Origin: an uncultured Nitrospiraceae bacterium
GTDB taxonomy: Bacteria > Nitrospirota > Nitrospiria > Nitrospirales > Nitrospiraceae
DNA length: 64,000 nucleotides
Reading direction: 5' to 3'
Assembly: GCA_963846575.1 (NCBI GenBank)
Contig: CAWJWJ010000001.1
Coordinates: 960,001-1,024,000 of the forward strand
The position numbers and the translations under genes were made by a program. The notes below the pieces were generated by a model that searched no databases, was not told the DNA's origin, and was given only the letters and a program-made list of their open reading frames with translations. This document shows, piece after piece, positions 39,290 to 48,516 of the stretch (position 1 is the stretch's first letter; every line of letters begins with the position of its first letter).

Positions 39290-39373
39290 CACCCCGGACA
39301 GGCGGCCGGCTCACGAGCGGGACGCCTGGCATTCTTGACAACGCCTGCGGAACAATGGTTCTTATACCGGCGC

Positions 39374-39450
39374 GCGCCCGTAGCTCAATTGGATAGAGCA
39401 TCGGACTTCGGATCCGAGGGTTGGGGGTTCAAGTCCCTCCGGGCGCACCA
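39374..39450 (+). tRNA. tRNA-Arg (anticodon TCG)
   Basis: Acceptor GCGCCCG/CGGGCGC-A-CCA; anticodon stem TCGGA/TCCGA with loop CT-TCG-GA; T-loop GTTCAAGT; 77 nt. Confidence 0.95.
39406..39450 (+). repeat. attL core (tRNA 3' half)
   Basis: CTTCGGATCCGAGGGTTGGGGGTTCAAGTCCCTCCGGGCGCACCA, identical to 48067-48111. Confidence 0.95.
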
Positions 39451-39496
39451 GATAATCAATAGGTTGCATCTTTTCTTCCGTTTTCTCCTCTTGGCT

Positions 39497-39519
39497 GGTC
39501 ACGGTTTTGGTCACGGTTC
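39497..39519 (+). repeat. Putative integrase arm-type sites (left)
   Basis: GGTCACGGTTTTGGTCACGGTTC, identical at 47902-47924. Confidence 0.7.
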
Positions 39520-40552
39520 CAGCCAGACTTCCTCGATTCACGGCGTCCCGAAGATGTCCTGGGGCGAGGTGGGCATATCGGAGCGTCGTCTCAATATCGC
39601 GGTGCCCGAGGATCTCCTTCACCGACACGAGATCGACCCCTGCCATGACACGGCGACTAGCTGCGGTATGTCGGAGTGAGTGCCAGCACGCCCCGGTAAT
39701 CCCCGCTCGACGCAGGCCAGGCTCAAACGCGCGCCGGAGGAAGGCCCGGCTGTCCATCGGGTGAGTCACGTCCTTTAATCCTGGAAAGACCCACGCCGAT
39801 CGAAGGAACGAGTCAAATGACCTCAGAATCGGTCTTGGCTCCTTCGCTCAAGGGCACATGCCGGGTTTTTCCTCCCTTCGGCATGGGGAGGGTCAGGACC
39901 TCGTTCTCCAAATCGACCTGGTTCCACCTGAGCGAAAACTGTTCTCCTCGTCTCAGACCCCGTCTCGACGGCGAAGGCCACCAATTTCCACTCCTCCGGG
40001 GTCATCACGCCCCTCAATCGGTCAAGTTCCTCACTGGTCAGGAATCGCGTCCGGTTCGCTTCAGGGAAGAACTTGAGGCTGGAGACTGGGTTCTTGGTGA
40101 GCTTGTCGTCTTTGACGGCTAACATCAGCACATGACGAAGGAAGGCAAAATGCCGGTTGATCGTGGCATCCGCCCACAGTCGTTGCGGTTCCTTCTTGCT
40201 CACCTTCATTTTGGCTCGCATTCTGGCCTGAATGCGCCGGAGATCGTCTACTGAAATCTGGGTGAGCACGCGATTCCCGATGAGCAGCGACCAGCGTCGC
40301 CCATAGAGCACTTCACCTGGCTTGTTGCGGTTGACAGATCCTTCGAGATAGCGATTGATCCACGCCCGAAGCGTAATGTCCTTTCGAGGGGCGAATTTCT
40401 CCGGGAAAAATGTCCCTTCCCGAATGTCGGCCTTCAATCGGCCATACAGGGCCTTGGCCTGTGATTTCGTATCACACCGAAACCAGCGCTCCCGACCGTG
40501 GACGTAGAGGCGCACCCACCAGCCTTCACGGCCTTTCCGCTGCGTGATGCCT

Positions 40553-41219
40553 CTATCCTTTCCCGCTTTTCTTGCCACGATGGCTCTCCTTTCGCTCCCC
40601 GGTCTTCTGGGCCTCGCGCCACTTTCTCGCCGCGACTCGGTTCTGGCAGCGCGGCTGGCAGTATACCTGGTCGCGCCGGATGGCTAAATAGATCGTCCGC
40701 ACTCGGGGCAGCGACGAATGTAGTCCCCGGACTGGACCAAGAGGTGCACAAAGCGGTACTCAAACTCCTTCGCCTTGCGCTTCGCGCTCACGAAGATTGT
40801 TCCGGTCTCGTCGGAGAAGCTGCCCGGCGATACTCACGACCAGGGTGAACTGCGGAAAGGTGAAGGCGGTGTATCGCTTCATGCCAATAGAGTTCCAACT
40901 GCTCCAGGACGGCGGCCTGAATCTCCTGGGCTTCTTTGCGACTGGGAATCGTCTGATAGTTCTTCGCGTTGGGCACCGCTTCCACGCTCCAGCCACTTTC
41001 GGGGGCCACCATCCCACCGTATCGGTCTCCCGTCTCGTCGACAAAGGCCGCGACCTCAAACGCTACCAGCGTCCATTCCGTGGGCGTCAGAGTTTCTAGA
41101 TCGACCTGTAAAAAGCGGAGCACCCACCCGACGGCGCCATCCGGCATCGTGCGGATGCGCTCGATGGCTTTCTGATACTCCTGTTGGAATTCCTGCTCGG
41201 CCTTCCCCTGTGCGCTCAT
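40553..41219 (-). pseudogene. CGNR zinc-finger protein, about 3 apparent frameshifts
   Basis: Stitched frames: MSAQGKAEQEF...LELYWHE / YTAFTFPQFTLVV / SPGSF...YIRRCPECG / IYLAIRRDQVYCQPRCQNRVAARKWR. Confidence 0.75.
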
Positions 41220-41424
41220 GCCTTCGGCTCCTTTCTCATGCCGAACCCTCCCCGTATTCCTGATCCCAACACCACCGAAAAAAGTGTCGTGCGGAAGGGC
41301 CGTCTCCACCTGAATTTGTTTGGCAAGTGTACCTCCGCACTTGATAATGGCTGTCAAGAGTCATCACGCCTAAAAAATAAGACGCGTGATCATTTTCCAA
41401 ACCATTCTTCCAAGGAGGTGCCCG

Positions 41425-41634
41425 ATGGTCCCAGTACAAAATTGATCACCATTCGAGAAGCGGCCGAACCGGTTAGGTCTGAAGGAAAGCACGATCAGGA
41501 AATACATCCTGAAACGGCAGATCGCCTATGTGAAGCCGTCGGTGCGAGCGGTGCGGATTCCCATCGAGGAATTGGAACGGATTCTCTCTGCCGGTCTGAG
41601 GCCGGCGATCCCTCAGGGGGAGGGTGCCCGATGA
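41425..41634 (+). pseudogene. Excisionase-like HTH protein, frameshifted
   Basis: AAGGAGGTG RBS; stitched KLITIREAAE-RLGLKESTIRKYILKRQIAYVKPSVRAVRIPIEELERIL; stop overlaps the next ATG (ATGA). Confidence 0.8.
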
Positions 41635-42346
41635 GCCGCTGGAAGGAGTTTCGGCGCGAACCAGTCGCCGGCGAATGGAGCAGGAAGCAGAAGCGGGGCT
41701 ATCACCGCGTCCGGTCGCTCCTGTGGTTCTGGGAGTCCCATCAGTTCCAGGTGCTCTGGGTCACGCTGTCTACGGCAGAAGGCGGGGATGCGGAGAAGCT
41801 CACCTATCACCACAAGCAACTGCGCCAACGGATCGAACGCCAGCTCGGCTTTGCAGGGTTGGAGTATTACCAGGTGCGGACAGATGAAGGGCATGGCGTG
41901 CTCCATATCTTCTGGGCCTGGCGGGTGCCGGATGGGGAACGCGCTCGCCGGTTCTGGATCTCGCAGGAATGGCTCTCGTCACAATGGGAAGCCCTCCACG
42001 GGGCTCCGGTGGTCTGGATCAAGGCCTACCAGCCCAGCCATCGCTCAAGGAACCGGTTGAGTCGCTACGTCATCAGCCAGTACGTCCAGGATCAATGCTG
42101 GCTACGTGAATATGTGTTGGTCGTGGAAACGGTCGCTTGGGGTTCCCCATCGGGAAGATGTGGGAAGAGATGCGGAACCAATGGCAGACCCAGAATGTCT
42201 ACCGACGCATACGGAAACAGATCGAAGTTCCTCGCATCGTCTTTCTCAAGACCTGGGAGGATCTGCTGTCTGGGCACCCCATCTGGTTCAGTAACACCAT
42301 TCTCCAACTCGTCCTGGGCAAAGGCCTCGTCTGGAGTCCGCTATGA
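41631..42346 (+). pseudogene. Rolling-circle Rep-like (HUH-superfamily) protein, two apparent +1 frameshifts
   Basis: Ordered motifs WVTLST (I), EGHGVLHIFW (II-like), W....G, LSRYVISQYV (III-like); continues GYVNMCWSWKRSLG / FPIGKMWEE...WSPL. Confidence 0.65.
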
Positions 42347-42598
42347 AGAGCCCCCCATACCTGTGTCATCCAAATTAACAGTCTGTTGGGCCTCACGTGT
42401 TGCGGCAAGCCTGCCACGCTCTATGACCGGGCCAGAAAGGACTGGATTTGCACGGAACATCATCGGGAGCGTCTGTGCGAGTTCTGTCAGTGTGAGCGGG
42501 CCTGGGGGCGCGTACAGATGCGCTCTCATCTCTATGCCGCGCCCTGTGAGGTGTGGCTCTGTGCGTCATGTGCGGGAATACGGGACGGTAGGACCTGA
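42343..42598 (+). pseudogene. Small Cys-rich protein, +1 frameshift in a C6 run
   Basis: ATGA overlap with the Rep stop; removing one C gives MKSPHTCVIQINSLLGLTCCGKP...CEFCQC...CASC. Confidence 0.65.
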
Positions 42599-42623
42599 GA
42601 TCACGGCGGCCTGCTCTCATCAA

Positions 42624-42870
42624 TCTCACCCTGTCACCCGTCCATTATCCTAACGGGTGAGAGGGGAATAGGGTGACCTCATCCTACCAGATGGCGGCGA
42701 TGCGTCAGCTTGGCCGTCCATCTGCTCTGTCGATACCTCGTTGCGTGAAGGAAAAGAATGAATGCAGACTAGGAGGAAAGAAGTCACGCAGGAAGCTTAC
42801 CCCAAGGACCCGCCGGCCGCTCCGGACCAATCGGACCGGACGGCCGGGGGGTTCGGGGGCAGAGCCCCCG
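42624..42870. other. Hairpin-rich non-coding region (candidate replication origin)
   Basis: TCACCCGT-11nt-ACGGGTGA (42634-42660) and CGGGGGC-AGA-GCCCCCG (42854-42870). Confidence 0.4.
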
Positions 42871-43563
42871 CTTCACTTGATTCATATGGTCAAAGTAGGA
42901 AACTTGGCTACGGTGTTTAGCGGGACCACTTCACTCTGATCCAACTCGCTGCTGACAAGCCCGATGCCGACGGCTTCTCTCGAAGCACGATCGAGCTTCT
43001 AAAGCCTGTCTATAATGGCGCGAGTTTAGTGAGAATAAGGGTTAAGGGACAACCAGTACGCTTGACGGGATTCTCCCTTGAACAGATGTGGATCGAAATG
43101 CCGCTAGAAAACTGTAGAGAACTGGTGTTTAAAACATCCCCACCCCCAGAAACTAAGGACCGTGATCGAGGACCGAAAGCTAATTAAACCGCCGTCCCCG
43201 CCAAGCGGATTGCCGTAGAAATTGGTTTGAATGTCACAATCTTCCTGGAGAGGATGGAGAGGTCAATACACCGGCCGCTCAGGTCCACCATCACTATCTA
43301 TACTCTCCTCTGCGTGCCATCAATAAAGCAGCGGAAGAAACCTATTAGTACTGTCCTGATCTCTGACTCCTCCGTATTCCCAAATCACCGCTAACATTCG
43401 TACCTCATACCTGAGACCTTTGTTGATCCTTGCCTGGTGATCAACTCGTGCCTGACTCTGAAACTGGCGTACGACTTGTAGCCGTGGTTCAGCGAACAAG
43501 ATGCGCAACATCTAAATAACGCTCAAGGTCCATCGGTTCCATCCTCTAGACGCACTCTGTTCG

Positions 43564-43600
43564 GTATCTCTTTAGATACGACTAGTATCTCTTTAGATAT
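43564..43600. promoter_or_regulatory. Tandem palindromic operator / upstream activator sites
   Basis: GTATCT-CTTT-AGATAC at 43564-43579 and GTATCT-CTTT-AGATAT at 43585-43600; 21-bp period. Confidence 0.6.
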
Positions 43601-43660
43601 ACTCTGAAATTTTTCGCATTCATGACTATTCGCTTTTTTAAACTGGCACGCAGAAACACG

Positions 43661-43676
43661 TGGCATGTGGTTTGCT
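43661..43676 (+). promoter_or_regulatory. Sigma54 (-24/-12) promoter
   Basis: TGGCAT-GTGGT-TTGCT with GG-N10-GC spacing, 50 bp before the 43726 ATG. Confidence 0.65.
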
Positions 43677-43725
43677 CGTACTAGTATAGTAGCCGCAAGT
43701 TACGCACATTCAGCAGTCACCTGCA

Positions 43726-45336
43726 ATGGAGGTAACAGTGAAAGCCATCTATAACAAGAGATCTTATGTATCGGCAGTAGGGCTAACGTTGGGATGGCCA
43801 TTCCTTTTGGCCTCAACAGCCGTGGCGAGCGGGTATGAAGAATGTAACCAAATACTCACCCAGGACATCTTTAACAAGGTTCTAAAAAGTGATGTAAGCA
43901 CCGCGTCAGCGTCGGAGGCATACCAGTCGGCATATTTCAAGTCGAACGCCACAGCGGCATACAATGAATATAAGACGGCACATAAAGAAGCGCAGAAAAA
44001 AGGGACAAAGCTTGAGGTTGGAGGTAACTACGGTCCGATTGGTGCGAAGATGGGCCTAGAGTTGACCTCCGAGAAACTCGTTGAAAAAGAAGAGTTCGAG
44101 AAGGCATTTAACAGTGTGCAAAGTCAGGAGTCGGGATCGCAATCCTCTAGTTCCTCCTCAGCTCAATCCCTTGTAAATACATATGCTACATATGTCCGAG
44201 ACCCTGTAACCGTGTCTGCATGGAAAGATTGCGTCTCTCGGACGAAGGACACTAACCTCTACGCGTATGCAAGCCGTGATGGGAAGCGTACATATGTAAA
44301 CGTTATGTGGGTTCCGGGCGCCTTGGCTGGCATGCTACCTTCCATTCCAATAAGCTTCGTAACGCACGACTCGGACATTGTAATTGAAGCGAAATCAGTA
44401 GAACAAATCGCAATAGGGAGCGGTCGGAATTTTGTGGTGACTTGTAGCAAATCTTGCGACAAGGGCTTTCTGGTTACTGTCAACGGGAGCCTGAAAAATT
44501 CCACCGGCGCTCTCGGAGGCTCTTTCACTGCCACTGTGCAGGTACCTCCTAAGCGGTTACCTGTTCCGAAGGCTCCGGGAGTAGTAGCGTCCGTAGATCA
44601 CACATACATTTATGGGATCAATAACAACGGTGAAATGTTCTGGTATGAAAACGATCGACAGACTGATGATAGCCTTGAATGGGCCAGCGATGAGGGAAAG
44701 CTGGTCGGAACAGGGTGGAACTTTGATCAGGTCTTTTCCGGCGGCAATGCGGTTATTTATGGGGTCAAGGATAACGGCGATTTGCTGTGGTATCGCCATG
44801 ACGGGCGAAACGACGGAACGATGAAATGGTCTCCCCAATCTCGATCGAAGGTAGGCGATGGATGGCATTTCAAGCAAATATTTTCGATCGGCAATGGTGT
44901 CATCTACGCTATTAAGGAAAATGGCGACGTGTACTGGTATCGCCATGAAGGGCGAAATGACGGGAGTCTAAGATGGGCCAAAAATTCTGGGCAGCGAGTG
45001 GCCAGTGGGTGGGATTTTAAGCAAATTATTGCTGGCGACAACGGTGTGATCTATGGCGTCACTGACAACGGCGACGTACTTTGGTATCGCCACGAAGGAT
45101 GGAATGATGGTGGCTCGAGTTGGGCAAAAAAGTCCGGAACCAAGGTAAATTCTGGATGGAACTTCGAGAAAGTCTTTTCAATCGGCGGCGGTGTCATCTA
45201 TGGCGTCAAAGATAACGGCGACTTATTTTCATATCAGCATGAAGGACGGAATGATGGTAGCCCGAAATGGGCACCCAGCGATGGACAAAAAATGGGTGAC
45301 CGCTGGAACTTTAGGCAAGTCTTTGCGGGAAAATAG
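43726..45336 (+). CDS. Secreted protein: unknown N-terminal domain plus five tachylectin-2-like repeats
   Basis: Signal peptide ending AVA; five ~49-aa repeats IY(G/A)...NGD..WY.H.G..DG...W.....V..GW.F..(V/I)F. Confidence 0.88.
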   Translation: MEVTVKAIYNKRSYVSAVGLTLGWPFLLASTAVASGYEECNQILTQDIFNKVLKSDVSTASASEAYQSAYFKSNATAAYNEYKTAHKEAQKKGTKLEVGGNYGPIGAKMGLELTSEKLVEKEEFEKAFNSVQSQESGSQSSSSSSAQSLVNTYATYVRDPVTVSAWKDCVSRTKDTNLYAYASRDGKRTYVNVMWVPGALAGMLPSIPISFVTHDSDIVIEAKSVEQIAIGSGRNFVVTCSKSCDKGFLVTVNGSLKNSTGALGGSFTATVQVPPKRLPVPKAPGVVASVDHTYIYGINNNGEMFWYENDRQTDDSLEWASDEGKLVGTGWNFDQVFSGGNAVIYGVKDNGDLLWYRHDGRNDGTMKWSPQSRSKVGDGWHFKQIFSIGNGVIYAIKENGDVYWYRHEGRNDGSLRWAKNSGQRVASGWDFKQIIAGDNGVIYGVTDNGDVLWYRHEGWNDGGSSWAKKSGTKVNSGWNFEKVFSIGGGVIYGVKDNGDLFSYQHEGRNDGSPKWAPSDGQKMGDRWNFRQVFAGK

Positions 45337-45590
45337 GACCTGATTCAGGCACATCCACAGAGTCCAGTGATGGTCTTTGAGAGGATTATGTGACGCTAAC
45401 CATGAAACTTCACTGAATTGGACACGACCACCTCGGGAATTGATGACTGGGACGCCATCCAAAATCACAGGGTATCTCAGAGTTCAGACGATCACGACCA
45501 CAGACATGACAAAGTAAACTCACCGCTGGACTCAGATCGAGTCCGTCCGATCTTGTTTACCTTTCACAAGCCGAGTTGCAGGAGATACCA

Positions 45591-46433
45591 ATGTTTGTAC
45601 GATTCTATTTGATGATGGGAATCTCTTTGGTGTTTTTCTGTCAGGCGACTCCGTTACTTGCTGAAAATGTCCTCGAGTGGAAGGGTTTTAAAGGGGACAA
45701 TAAGCTAAAAGATGCAGCCAACCTCGATTCCGCTCACATAAAGCAGGGAGATCGGGGACCGCATGTCAGCAAGATACAACACTCTATAAAATTCCTGGAC
45801 TCCGCTTTCATCAGCCAAGAAGAAATGGACACACAAACATATGGTCCATCAACGGCTAAAGCTGTGCTGGGCTACAAAACTTCCCGAAAGATTATTAACC
45901 AGAAATACCAGTCAAAACCTGACAGCATTGTAGGGAAAATGACTATGGTGGCCTTAGATCGCGAGATGAGCCAAAGAGCCATGGAACGCTTTGAAGATCT
46001 CAAATTCCCTGCAGCAATGGAACCTTTCCCAAGTAACGAGGCGAAAGCTCCAGACGGCTTTTCTATCCCAATTCCCAAAACCATTACACGTTCTGGCAAT
46101 ATTATCTCTCTCCGGGGAGCAAGAGTAACAGTGACAATGGGGCCAGAACGCGCCAGTTCATGTAAATATCGCATGGTGATTGATAATGTTCCTCCGGAGA
46201 CTCACAACGACGCGCAACTAGCAAGTGAAGCAGCAGACCATCTGGTTGAAGAAGCCGCGTGGGCGGTAATACTTGATAAAGCAGCAGCCGCTATCACGTT
46301 TGGTTCCACAAAAGTAGGCATCGGTGTATCAGCAGCAGCAGCTTTAATTGTACCATCTCCAATTCTCCGAGAAATTGTGTGGCATGCTGATGTCGATGGG
46401 AGGAAGGTTTGCTACCTATTGGTAACCCAGTAA
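45591..46433 (+). CDS. Exported protein with PG-binding-like domain and unknown C-terminal domain
   Basis: AGGAG RBS; signal peptide; IKQGDRGPHVSKIQ..YGPSTAKAV..YK...DSIVGKMTMVALD. Confidence 0.8.
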   Translation: MFVRFYLMMGISLVFFCQATPLLAENVLEWKGFKGDNKLKDAANLDSAHIKQGDRGPHVSKIQHSIKFLDSAFISQEEMDTQTYGPSTAKAVLGYKTSRKIINQKYQSKPDSIVGKMTMVALDREMSQRAMERFEDLKFPAAMEPFPSNEAKAPDGFSIPIPKTITRSGNIISLRGARVTVTMGPERASSCKYRMVIDNVPPETHNDAQLASEAADHLVEEAAWAVILDKAAAAITFGSTKVGIGVSAAAALIVPSPILREIVWHADVDGRKVCYLLVTQ

Positions 46434-46760
46434 TCTTACCTCACCGTAGTTTTCAGTTGAAGCCCGCGATCAGCCTGATAGCTACAGATGACACTAGCTT
46501 GAGAAGCCGTTTTAAGGCGAGGGTAAGAGGTTCAATAACTTCGGGCCTATCGAACAGCTCTAAAGGCGTTGATAGGAAAACTGTAATGTTCGACATGAGA
46601 ACAGCTCGGGGAGCCATTGCTTTCATCGAACCATTTGAGGCGGAGTCATTTCAAATCAAGCGTTGCTATTTCTGCTCGCGATGACGCTTAAGGCTTAGGT
46701 TGAACAAGAGGCCGGCCTGTAGGTATCAGCGACTAGCAGCATTTGCGCCATCAAGCTATA

Positions 46761-47495
46761 CTATTGGATAAATGGGGTCGAACCCGATTCGTGGAATTGC
46801 TCTATCAATTGCCCTGCGCACTTGTTCCCAGCAATCGCGAGTTGCTGCACCATAAATATCATGCCCCATTCGGCTTGTTCTCGCCATTCGGACCGTACGT
46901 CCAGTGAACCAACAGAGCATTGACCCTGCCAAACCACCGTGGAGTCCTTGAGTCGAATGAGACGGGCACGTGCCTGATAGTAGAGGTTGAACTTCTTGCC
47001 CAAGACGTTAAACATGCCAGCGTCGGATATCCACAAGCTTGACACCTCAATGTTGAAGGGGTCGCGCTCGTGTAAAAATGCTTTACGTGATGTAAAGTCC
47101 AACACATAGCCATCACCGAAGGTTTCCCCTAACTCTGTTATTCCCTCTCGAATGCAACAAGATCGCGTTAATGACCACCGGTGTCGCCACACCACAGGTA
47201 TGGGCACGGATCGTATATTGGTAAGACCGGCTTGAGCCATCAATTGGGAAGACACCTGCTCTTTTATGATGTCGATAGGGTCTGATAAAAGCAGTCCGTG
47301 CGTGGAAGCTAGACCTGGTGCATAGGACACAAAAATACCGTCGCCCTGGCGCCAATGGACTGCTTGAATCAGTGGGATGTGCTGGAGCTCAGCCCTCTGC
47401 TGGTCCGATAGATTAAGCCGCCCAGTTCCCCCTATACATCCAAGCGTGCTCACTATGAAAAGGACGACAATCAGTCGCAATGCGATTCTAAACAT
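46761..47495 (-). CDS. Hypothetical lipoprotein
   Basis: MFRIALRLIVVLFIVSTLGC lipobox. Confidence 0.72.
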   Translation of the reverse strand: MFRIALRLIVVLFIVSTLGCIGGTGRLNLSDQQRAELQHIPLIQAVHWRQGDGIFVSYAPGLASTHGLLLSDPIDIIKEQVSSQLMAQAGLTNIRSVPIPVVWRHRWSLTRSCCIREGITELGETFGDGYVLDFTSRKAFLHERDPFNIEVSSLWISDAGMFNVLGKKFNLYYQARARLIRLKDSTVVWQGQCSVGSLDVRSEWREQAEWGMIFMVQQLAIAGNKCAGQLIEQFHESGSTPFIQ

Positions 47496-47901
47496 CAGAT
47501 TTCCATGTACGAGGGTGTGAAGCATCTGGTGGAGATCGGAAAACGGGGCAGTCTTGAGCTCGAGTCACAGTTGTGGAACGGCCCGCTAGCAGATGTTTCA
47601 CAGCTCGGGTAGTCGCACGCTATCCCTCAACATCCTAGTTAAATGGATGAATAATGCTAGGGAAAGTTGTAAATGGTCGTGCGGCGCCATCTGGGAGATT
47701 TTCCCGAGCACGATCGGCGCGTCCGGTTTAGTCTAGGGATTGAGCCGTTTCGATGATCAGGTAATTCTTTCGGGAGGAGGTCGCTCTATCGCTAACAGCA
47801 TAGAAGATGGCCGTCGCGATTGGGTCGAAAGCCGGAAAGCTCTTGATCCGCTCTATGGGCAATCCGGTTCACACGGAAGGAGCATATTGGACGGCATTCT
47901 C

Positions 47902-47940
47902 GGTCACGGTTTTGGTCACGGTTCGGTCCCGGTTTTGGCC
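47902..47940 (+). repeat. Putative integrase arm-type sites (right)
   Basis: GGTCACGGTTTT GGTCACGGTTC GGTCCCGGTTTT GGCC. Confidence 0.7.
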
Positions 47941-48066
47941 CCGATTGCTAATCTACCCTCATCGTCACTGGTCGCACCGTTGAATGCTCTAATCGATTGA
48001 TTTGCAAAACTAAAATCACGTTCTGTCACCACCAATCGCTGTCAGTCTCTATGTCACTTTGTGAGC

Positions 48067-48111
48067 CTTCGGATCCGAGGGTTGGGGGTTCAAGTCCCTC
48101 CGGGCGCACCA
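48067..48111 (+). repeat. attR core (copy of tRNA-Arg 3' half)
   Basis: 45/45 identical to 39406-39450. Confidence 0.95.
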
Positions 48112-48231
48112 TATAATCAATCGGTTGCATCTCCCCATCTCGTTTTCCCTCTTCACCGGTCACGGTTTCAGCGGGACTGCTTCGACTCACTTCGTCCCGA
48201 AACTGCCTCGTGGAAGGCGGGCGTATCGAGC
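48112..48231 (-). pseudogene. Relic 3' end of a second, homologous integrase
   Basis: Aligns by eye with 39451-39585; encodes RYARL../RQFRDEVSRSSPAETVT...MQPIDYMVRPEG versus RYAHLAPGHLRDAVNRGSLAGTVT...MQPIDYLVRPEG. Confidence 0.75.
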
Positions 48232-48516
48232 GGAATCGGGCGTCCTGCTGCGGGTGGGCCTGGTGACGGTGGCTGAACGATTGACCGGCCTGGCCGATCA
48301 ACTTGCGCTCTCAAATTCAAGACGCCAGCCGGAATGGGGAGGATCGGAAGGGTGCAGCTTGTGCAGCCGATCCTGCCTCTTTTGTGCTCTGCCGGACCGC
48401 GTCAGGATCGACGCAACACACCTTCCAATCTGTAGCATCCGTGAGCAGGCGTCGGTAGACAACGCTCCGCGTGGTTACGTAGAGTCGCCCGGATTCATTT
48501 TTCTCAGGGTTGACTC

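Follow-up and report, generated by a model that had tools for sequence, protein, structure and literature searches.

A tRNA-integrated element family with a rolling-circle-type Rep in Nitrospira, and its possible carriage by filamentous phages

Nitrospira is a key nitrite-oxidising nitrifier, and few of its mobile elements have been described. We analysed a window of 64,000 nucleotides from an uncultured Nitrospiraceae bacterium (assembly GCA_963846575.1, contig CAWJWJ010000001.1, positions 960,001 to 1,024,000), where a compact element sits in a tRNA-Arg gene. The question it raises is how an element with an integrase and a replication protein, and with no transfer genes of its own, persists and spreads. 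Our reading, to which we give a probability of about three in four, is that this tRNA-integrated element likely excises as a circle, would replicate by rolling circle from a predicted nick site of its own with a Rep of the pRQ7 plasmid family, and passes from one Nitrospira species to another most likely by hitchhiking on co-resident filamentous phages. A preliminary description made from the letters alone had proposed a minimal integrative element replicating by rolling circle. The architecture of the attachment (att) sites and integrase, an HUH-type Rep and conserved synteny support that proposal; excision and replication are the steps we infer.

The element is bounded by a 45-bp direct repeat equal to the last 45 bases of the tRNA-Arg(TCG) gene, and the two exact copies announced in the preliminary description turn out to be the only ones in the 4.2-Mb genome. 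Ten-base repeats are found near both ends, 91-103 nt in from attL and 186-209 nt ahead of the end of attR; relatives have the same spacing. Since the repeat sequence varies with the type of integrase and the spacing is constant, these are likely the arm-binding sites of the integrase (Int). Between the ends, int and a CGNR-type gene on the minus strand are followed on the plus strand by xis, rep and a gene for a Cys-rich protein, then by hairpins and three cargo open reading frames (ORFs). The predicted divergent xis-rep-Cys operon is borne out by two ATGA overlaps (41631-41634 and 42343-42346), and GC content is 58 % in the core and 49 % in the three cargo ORFs. A family scan of the 13 element ORFs found no capsid, Zot, conjugation or primase family, in line with the first description; no mating-pore gene was seen in these ORFs or in 40 loci fetched from related genomes, and an Rfam scan matched the tRNA alone.

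Whether Rep has an HUH fold was a question set beforehand. The AlphaFold model of Rep (predicted local distance difference test score 83.7) has the HUH endonuclease fold: among 48,161 chains searched its best match is SIRV1 ORF119 (Z 10.8, root-mean-square deviation (rmsd) 3.5, 112 residues aligned), followed by parvovirus NS1 (Z 7.7), AAV5 Rep (Z 7.1) and Helitron, and a search of viral models (BFVD) matches microvirus initiators. His92 and Tyr146 are invariant in 92 distant members; T84, E86, G87, G89 and W119 are further invariant residues, and Y151 is present in at least 90 % of members. By profile comparison Rep is also homologous to the Rep of pRQ7 (probability 99.6 %), and the only two matches among 72,556 plasmids are pRQ7 and pRKU1, both Thermotoga plasmids of 846 bp (tblastn E 6e-6). 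pRQ7 is reported to replicate by rolling circle in the accessible text of PMC3398313. In a protein atlas Rep adjoins the PF23343 cluster (0.97); the Pfam PF23343 model itself reaches only E=0.049, in 2 of 21 members. Sequence searches of the PDB with Rep profiles gave nothing significant. The Rep family comprises 849 clusters at 50 % identity.

The non-coding region downstream of the Cys-rich gene was described at first as carrying hairpins, and region 42590-42910 indeed folds with a z of -5.6. Similarity to every relative stops at about 42900, just past four hairpins and an invariant GCTTCACTTGAT. Compensatory changes are seen at 4 of 21 predicted pairs in hairpins 1 and 2 and at 7 of 32 in hairpins 3 and 4. 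The origin motif occurs in 32 of 39 genomes of the genus, with none in a reversed control and none in the viral contigs searched. Beyond the genus, 4 of 12 distant loci have a hairpin with ACTTGATA placed 53-209 nt upstream of rep; these four belong to another family of the order, Verrucomicrobiota, Pseudomonadota and Bathyarchaeia. The plasmid pRQ7 contains TTCACTTGATA, and thus has the same CACTTGATA motif as the Nitrospira elements. The sequence CTTGATA is described as the nick site of pC194-type origins, with a single-strand origin upstream (PMC10378824, as far as its accessible text goes). On these comparisons, CACTTGAT is the likely nick site of Rep. A second CACTTGAT at 41338 was considered as an origin and rejected, being found in 1 of 34 loci only. 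Some distant Rep relatives (26-43 % identity) share the origin motif (L107 in Pseudomonadota, L099 and L103 in Bathyarchaeia, L097 and L106); the L107 locus has an integrase at a tRNA-Arg, cargo, Rep, and ORFs that look SSB-like and AlpA-like by eye and have no Pfam match.

The integrase assignment of the preliminary description was confirmed by PF00589 (E=2e-11, C-terminal piece) and, for intact relatives, by phrog_1 at 5e-65. For the CGNR gene, the zf-CGNR Pfam match is below cut-off (E=0.0016 in the window copy, 0.021 in an intact relative); the assignment stands through the protein model, whose best structural match, and the sole one above Z 5, is the DUF1470/CGNR protein 3H0N, with middling scores (Z 5.5, rmsd 5.3, 131 aligned). 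The PHROGs search gave no match for Rep, the CGNR protein or the Cys-rich protein, and profile searches found no family for the latter. The palindrome between the divergent genes has the form ATCACG..CGTGAT in 21 loci and TATGC..GCATA in 13, and its form matches the type of CGNR protein in 34 of 34 loci regardless of the type of integrase. The simplest explanation is that the CGNR protein and the palindrome are a repressor-operator pair, which these patterns make likely. The CGNR gene also holds the place that an ImmR-like pair occupies in elements of the tRNA-Asn type. A promoter scan found 1 site against 0.6 expected.

We propose the following sequence of events. The CGNR protein would bind the palindrome and hold xis, rep and the Cys-rich gene off; upon derepression, Xis and Int would excise the circle, and Rep would nick within CACTTGAT. 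The displaced strand would then pass through the cargo, attP and the core. The hairpins adjoin the motif on its upstream side and therefore would be displaced last, where the cassette may prime the second strand or act as a packaging signal. Int would finally reinsert the circle. Derivatives without Int, Xis and Rep of their own would be mobilised in trans. Such gene-less derivatives do occur, with att sites, arms and cassette kept and no intact Int, Xis or Rep, at tRNA-Arg(TCG) (L190, L195 and L196) and tRNA-Cys (L203). The three at tRNA-Arg(TCG) retain the sequence of a toxin-antitoxin-like pair (DinJ/YafQ-like by eye) that is also found in the autonomous L020, L024 and L051.

To place the element among its relatives, we followed Rep across genomes. 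Of 36 further genomes of the genus, 25 have Rep matches, at 1-6 per genome and mostly 93-97 % identity, and the named records among them are Nitrospira. Across the order, Rep is found in 14 of 19 genus genomes versus 1 of 65 in the largest sister genus. CGNR-Xis-Rep-Cys is present in 33 of the 40 fetched loci, 32 of them also with Int; six others have a serine recombinase module and one has another layout. The prediction that the core would be syntenic elsewhere is thus upheld: Int, CGNR, Xis, Rep and the Cys-rich gene are collinear in 32 of the 40 loci, with varied cargo. In the six tRNA-Asn loci (L017, L022, L031, L036, L045 and L052), Rep, Cys gene and origin are the same, and a large serine recombinase with a metalloprotease/helix-turn-helix (HTH) pair that is ImmA/ImmR-like replaces Int and CGNR. 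Through such integrase swaps a single core occupies seven target sites: tRNA-Arg(TCG), Arg(TCT), Cys, Gln, Lys and Asn, and the 3' end of a small gene. The last, which encodes a conserved protein of 64-67 aa, is the target of one integrase type (L015, L027, L044, L047 and L050). Elements with both ends (n=30) measure 4.9-10.7 kb, with a median of 8.7 kb.

The rep genes are about 89 % identical in DNA whether the copies share a genome, a site or neither, and the flanking gene is 66-89 % identical. The indifference of rep identity to genome and site indicates that modules recombine freely. Two pairs of elements in different species-level genomes are nearly the same, L025 and L033 at 99.99 % over 8,706 bp and L038 and L040 at 100 % over 8,708 bp. 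Because their flanks are only 93.7 % and 93.5 % identical respectively, these pairs show recent transfer between species.

One explanation for these features is that the element is a defective or cryptic inovirus prophage and no self-standing type. The Xis-Rep-Cys-rich order parallels that of the resident inoviruses, Rep is near the ORF2/G2P family, and two outlying Rep members have an inovirus-like xis-int layout. Nonetheless the 40 loci contain no Zot, coat or other virion gene, the Zot matches of the genome lie elsewhere, and the core proteins remain 96 % identical while silent change is saturating, which is not the mark of decay. We regard a prophage as highly improbable.

How, then, would the element move? 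Inoviruses are a plausible vehicle: Zot is found in 21 of 39 genus genomes, and the genome of the window houses four inoviruses. A rolling-circle plasmid without phage-like genes can be packaged by an inovirus, as reported for pDolos in the available part of its preprint. The copy numbers of elements and Zot correlate (Spearman 0.46, n=39; 0.52, n=16; kin are not independent). We tentatively favour extrusion of the single-stranded circle in inovirus particles, at somewhat less than even odds. A wider proposal is more speculative, and we hold it as doubtful: that these are widespread self-integrating inovirus satellites with a swappable integrase, a CGNR switch, an origin or packaging cassette and gene-less passengers, shuttling defence and metabolic cargo between nitrifier species in filamentous particles, with related Int-plus-Rep elements reaching Verrucomicrobiota, Pseudomonadota and Bathyarchaeia.

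The resident inoviruses deserve a description of their own. The Zot-encoding copies in this genome (G000) lie at C2:2083000-2095000, C2:1341000-1352500, C2:432000-446000 and C1:1-9000 (related loci L220-L239). Their family, with Xis, a Rep of another type, coat and a RadC-like gene, uses tRNA-Phe, Arg, Ala, Lys, Ser and Gly with swapped integrases, shares a conserved hairpin block ahead of the integrase, and occurs in 33 of 251 genomes of the order. In two loci (L221 in G018 and L231 in G020), an inovirus and an element flank one tRNA-Arg(TCT) from opposite sides.

Several observations weigh against our reading. Regarding the vehicle, the presence/absence association with Zot is weak (18/32 versus 3/7, p=0.68); other samples gave 16/26 versus 3/11 (p=0.08) and 10/15 versus 0/5 (p=0.03), where again kin are not independent. 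In G001, a complete genome, three elements occur without any Zot. We found no significant DNA similarity between element and inoviruses with blastn or nhmmer, the inoviruses use another Rep with no tblastn match to that of the element, and a covariance model run on 8 of the 20 inovirus loci placed its best match on the inovirus hairpin in 5 of these 8, with E values of only 0.08-0.6. Rep itself has no match in 50,697 phage records and occurs in 1 viral contig only. Regarding the mechanism, the first histidine expected in a canonical HUH motif is not fixed (H/N), and a distance of five residues separates the two tyrosines; the operator adjoins the CGNR gene, so linkage alone could account for the matching types; and all five core genes are frameshifted in the window copy. 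Lastly, no attP junction was found in 109 loci, metagenome or viral contigs with an arm-to-arm pattern, assemblies often missing rare junctions, and no terminal repeat was found in the Rep-bearing contigs checked.

The pattern used for attP matched 20 of 25 simulated junctions; 5 further elements could not be simulated and type A was outside its coverage. The junction expected from the preliminary description did not appear: assembled contigs, which seldom keep rare junctions, gave neither a 48111-to-39406 nor an attP joint, and the former is absent among the matches listed in contigs of 4 of 22 sequencing runs. No run in the sequencing-run search had more than 0.13 of the words, and no RNA run holding them was among the matches listed. 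Two candidate circles, L055 and L066, were rejected, as both ends inside the att core fit a graph break equally well.

Conjugative transfer is an unlikely route in our estimate. It would make the element an integrative and mobilizable element (IME), with Rep as a non-canonical relaxase, the cassette as oriT and passing conjugative elements giving the channel, a reading we likewise consider improbable. In its favour, streptococcal IMEs with Int, Xis, a rolling-circle-type relaxase and no coupling protein are described (35 of 118, accessible text of PMC5704250), the gene-less derivatives resemble oriT-only elements, and a coupling protein is present in 9 of 39 genus genomes. VirB4 was detected in 4 of 39, and the genome of the window has neither; PF10412 matches under full length were dropped as P-loop noise. 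Against it, the element has no coupling protein, and in the same review relaxases of this sort go with helpers of the TcpA type. Coupling proteins are more frequent in the sister genus (29/65, with Zot in 8/65), where Rep is nearly absent, and within the genus their association is 3/15 versus 2/5 (p=0.56), in a search not aimed at the TcpA type.

It is also conceivable, if rather doubtful, that the element spreads by unspecific routes. It would then be an integrative rolling-circle plasmid that lacks a dedicated helper and travels by natural transformation, generalized transduction or vesicles, and its replication would do no more than raise copy number and reintegration; we give this account, too, a minor share of the odds. 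ComEC is present in the genome of the window, and a plasmid of this kind needs no sequence in common with inoviruses, none having been found. The plasmids pRQ7, pMC24 and pRKU1 are nearly identical across Thermotoga species and are typed as non-mobilizable. However, ComEC was matched in 10 of 14 control genomes and is no sign of competence, and the retention of the four-hairpin cassette even in gene-less derivatives suggests that it is more than a nick site.

The frameshifts in the window copy call for an explanation of their own. Called against six relatives at the same target site, single-base indels affect int (2), CGNR (3), xis (1) and rep (2); with one more in the Cys-rich gene, they number about nine. 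The copy may be a true pseudogenised relic, which we find somewhat unlikely. In favour of a relic, about nine indels in 3.2 kb compare with 3 breaks in about 68 genes outside the element, decayed relatives exist (L191, L192 and L199), and the window rep is the most divergent among tyrosine-integrase copies (84-86 % in DNA). Yet every break is a single base, mostly an insertion; stop codons and large deletions are absent, the ORFs of the cargo and the att sites are unbroken, and a multi-copy inovirus, fragmented, is broken in like fashion together with the adjoining purA. We read the indels as poor polishing of shared sequence on account of this pattern, so that the window copy is probably mis-assembled rather than inactive. 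Environmental contigs lack several of the extra bases. Outside the element, the frameshifts at G000 C1:6659-7977 (purA, next to the inovirus) and C1:991284-992538 (another gene) are possible assembly errors.

Is the family new? The preliminary description did not recognise its architecture, and we found no account of it in the literature examined, mostly open-access main texts (including PMC11389934, PMC7072734, PMC12595487 and PMC2926602). The kind is another matter: integrase, excisionase, rolling-circle Rep, cargo and no transfer genes are known for IMEs and satellites. This is a new family of a known kind, the integrative element with a rolling-circle Rep; whether it belongs with the IMEs or with the inovirus satellites hinges on the transfer step. 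Actinomycete pSAM2-type elements also combine Int, Xis and a replication initiator at tRNA genes, in the sources available to us. They transfer conjugatively through their own FtsK-like Tra, and the 40 Nitrospira loci have no such conserved gene. PICMI and tycheposons are integrase-bearing, phage-moved defence islands. The I55-family defence islands (PMC12595487, accessible text) share a tyrosine integrase, a tRNA-type target, an excision regulator, defence-rich cargo and the absence of transfer genes; islands of this kind are larger or primase-based, whereas the Nitrospira elements use an HUH Rep and a defined origin cassette. Streptococcal IMEs (MobT, PF01719, PHA00330 or PF02407), as far as PMC5704250 describes them, share a site-specific integrase at tRNA or gene 3' ends, a rolling-circle-type initiator, the lack of a mating pore, variable cargo and module swaps including serine recombinases. 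The Nitrospira elements differ by their pRQ7 / ORF2-G2P Rep, their CGNR regulator and their phylum, and no TcpA was seen in them, in scans not aimed at that type. TLC-phi and RS1 of Vibrio cholerae and pDolos of Shewanella, in what their sources describe, are also small, use an HUH/Rep rolling circle, have no virion genes and live in inovirus-carrying hosts. TLC-phi integrates via host XerCD at dif (PMC6744903, in part), whereas the Nitrospira elements bring their own integrase. According to the preprint portion available, pDolos does not integrate; the Nitrospira elements do, with 1-7 kb of exchangeable cargo. The Thermotoga miniplasmids pRQ7, pRKU1 and pMC24 have a homologous Rep and, unlike the Nitrospira elements, are free one-gene molecules of 846 bp with no integrase, regulator or cargo.

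Since most sampled genomes of one Nitrospira genus have a member of this family, and since its cargo turns over fast and it has recently moved between species, it is likely a main route of accessory-gene flow there. Its cargo includes defence systems, a two-component system with a chlorite-dismutase-family gene, and FBPase. The analysis gives a role to a hitherto unannotated Rep family known from the smallest natural plasmid, and a first testable function, with a candidate operator, to a CGNR/DUF1470 protein; vectors might be built from its minimal Int-att and Rep-origin parts. Should inoviruses package the element, inovirus satellites would come to include elements with their own integrase.

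Cargo sits between the origin cassette and the right arm and is almost never common to different elements. We collected 71 non-redundant cargo proteins of at least 130 aa, scanned them with Pfam and submitted 59 to PADLOC, the 12 omitted having mostly evident other functions. At 1e-10, 15 of the 59 matched (Upx, type IIG restriction, SIR2, PifA and several PDC candidates), with no match for the three cargo proteins of the window. Those three all have N-terminal hydrophobic segments and the third a lipobox, as judged by eye, which agrees with the initial suggestion that they are exported and makes them likely secreted. The lectin named in the preliminary description is present in this copy, where tachylectin repeats in cargo 1 match PF14517 (E=7e-36; repeat unit 147 nt); it is peculiar to the window copy and no trait of the family. 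The coordinates of all features are given in Table 1.

Table 1. Features of the element and its borders, in window coordinates.
Feature	Position	Strand	Remarks
tRNA-Arg(TCG)	39374..39450	+	restored at attL; ARAGORN, Rfam
attL core, 45 bp	39406..39450	+	identical to 48067-48111
Tyrosine integrase	39362..40578	-	broken by single-base insertions near 39830, 39956; intact relatives 404 aa
Left arm-type repeats, 2 x GGTCACGGTT	39497..39518	+	within int 3' end; likely Int arm-binding sites
DUF1470/CGNR zinc-finger protein, likely repressor	40553..41219	-	indels near 40697, 40834, 40876; intact relatives ~221 aa
Palindrome ATCACG..CGTGAT, likely operator	41363..41390	.	between divergent genes
Excisionase-like HTH_17 protein	41425..41634	+	insertion near 41465; HTH_17 E=1e-8 in intact relative
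HUH rolling-circle Rep, pRQ7 / ORF2-G2P type	41631..42346	+	insertions near 42099, 42137; intact relatives 237 aa
Cys-rich small protein, ~80 aa	42343..42598	+	conserved; one frameshift near 5' end
Hairpins 1 and 2, candidate single-strand origin or packaging signal	42629..42717	+	conserved non-coding
Hairpins 3 and 4 with invariant GCTTCACTTGAT, predicted double-strand origin	42810..42900	+	CACTTGAT at 42874-42881
Cargo 1, likely secreted	43738..45336	+	unknown N-terminal domain and tachylectin repeats
Cargo 2, likely secreted	45591..46433	+	no significant family match
15-bp match to tRNA-Lys-type att core	46510..46524	+	possible scar of earlier cargo join; 18/19, E 0.35, weak
Cargo 3, likely lipoprotein	46761..47495	-	LGC lipobox
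Right arm-type repeats, 3 copies	47902..47934	+	
attR core, 45 bp	48067..48111	+	identical to 39406-39450
Relic left end of older related element	48112..48232	+	outside element, behind attR; int stub, one arm repeat

The relic behind attR shows 78 % identity over 181 nt. Integrase stubs with arm repeats in this place, here and in L016, L020, L043 and L048, are scars that earlier elements left where the present ones sit. For the N-terminal domain of cargo 1 (43738-44600) there are 26 relatives, and in some of them ricin-B or crystallin domains are fused to it; judged by these fusions, it represents a family with exchangeable C-terminal binding domains. The cargo 3 region (46610-47936) recurs at about 98 % in an environmental contig with different cargo upstream. 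One cargo set, a response regulator, a histidine kinase and a chlorite-dismutase-family protein, recurs in the interval from the Cys gene to the origin in L014, L018, L021, L025, L033, L038, L040, L031 and L052.

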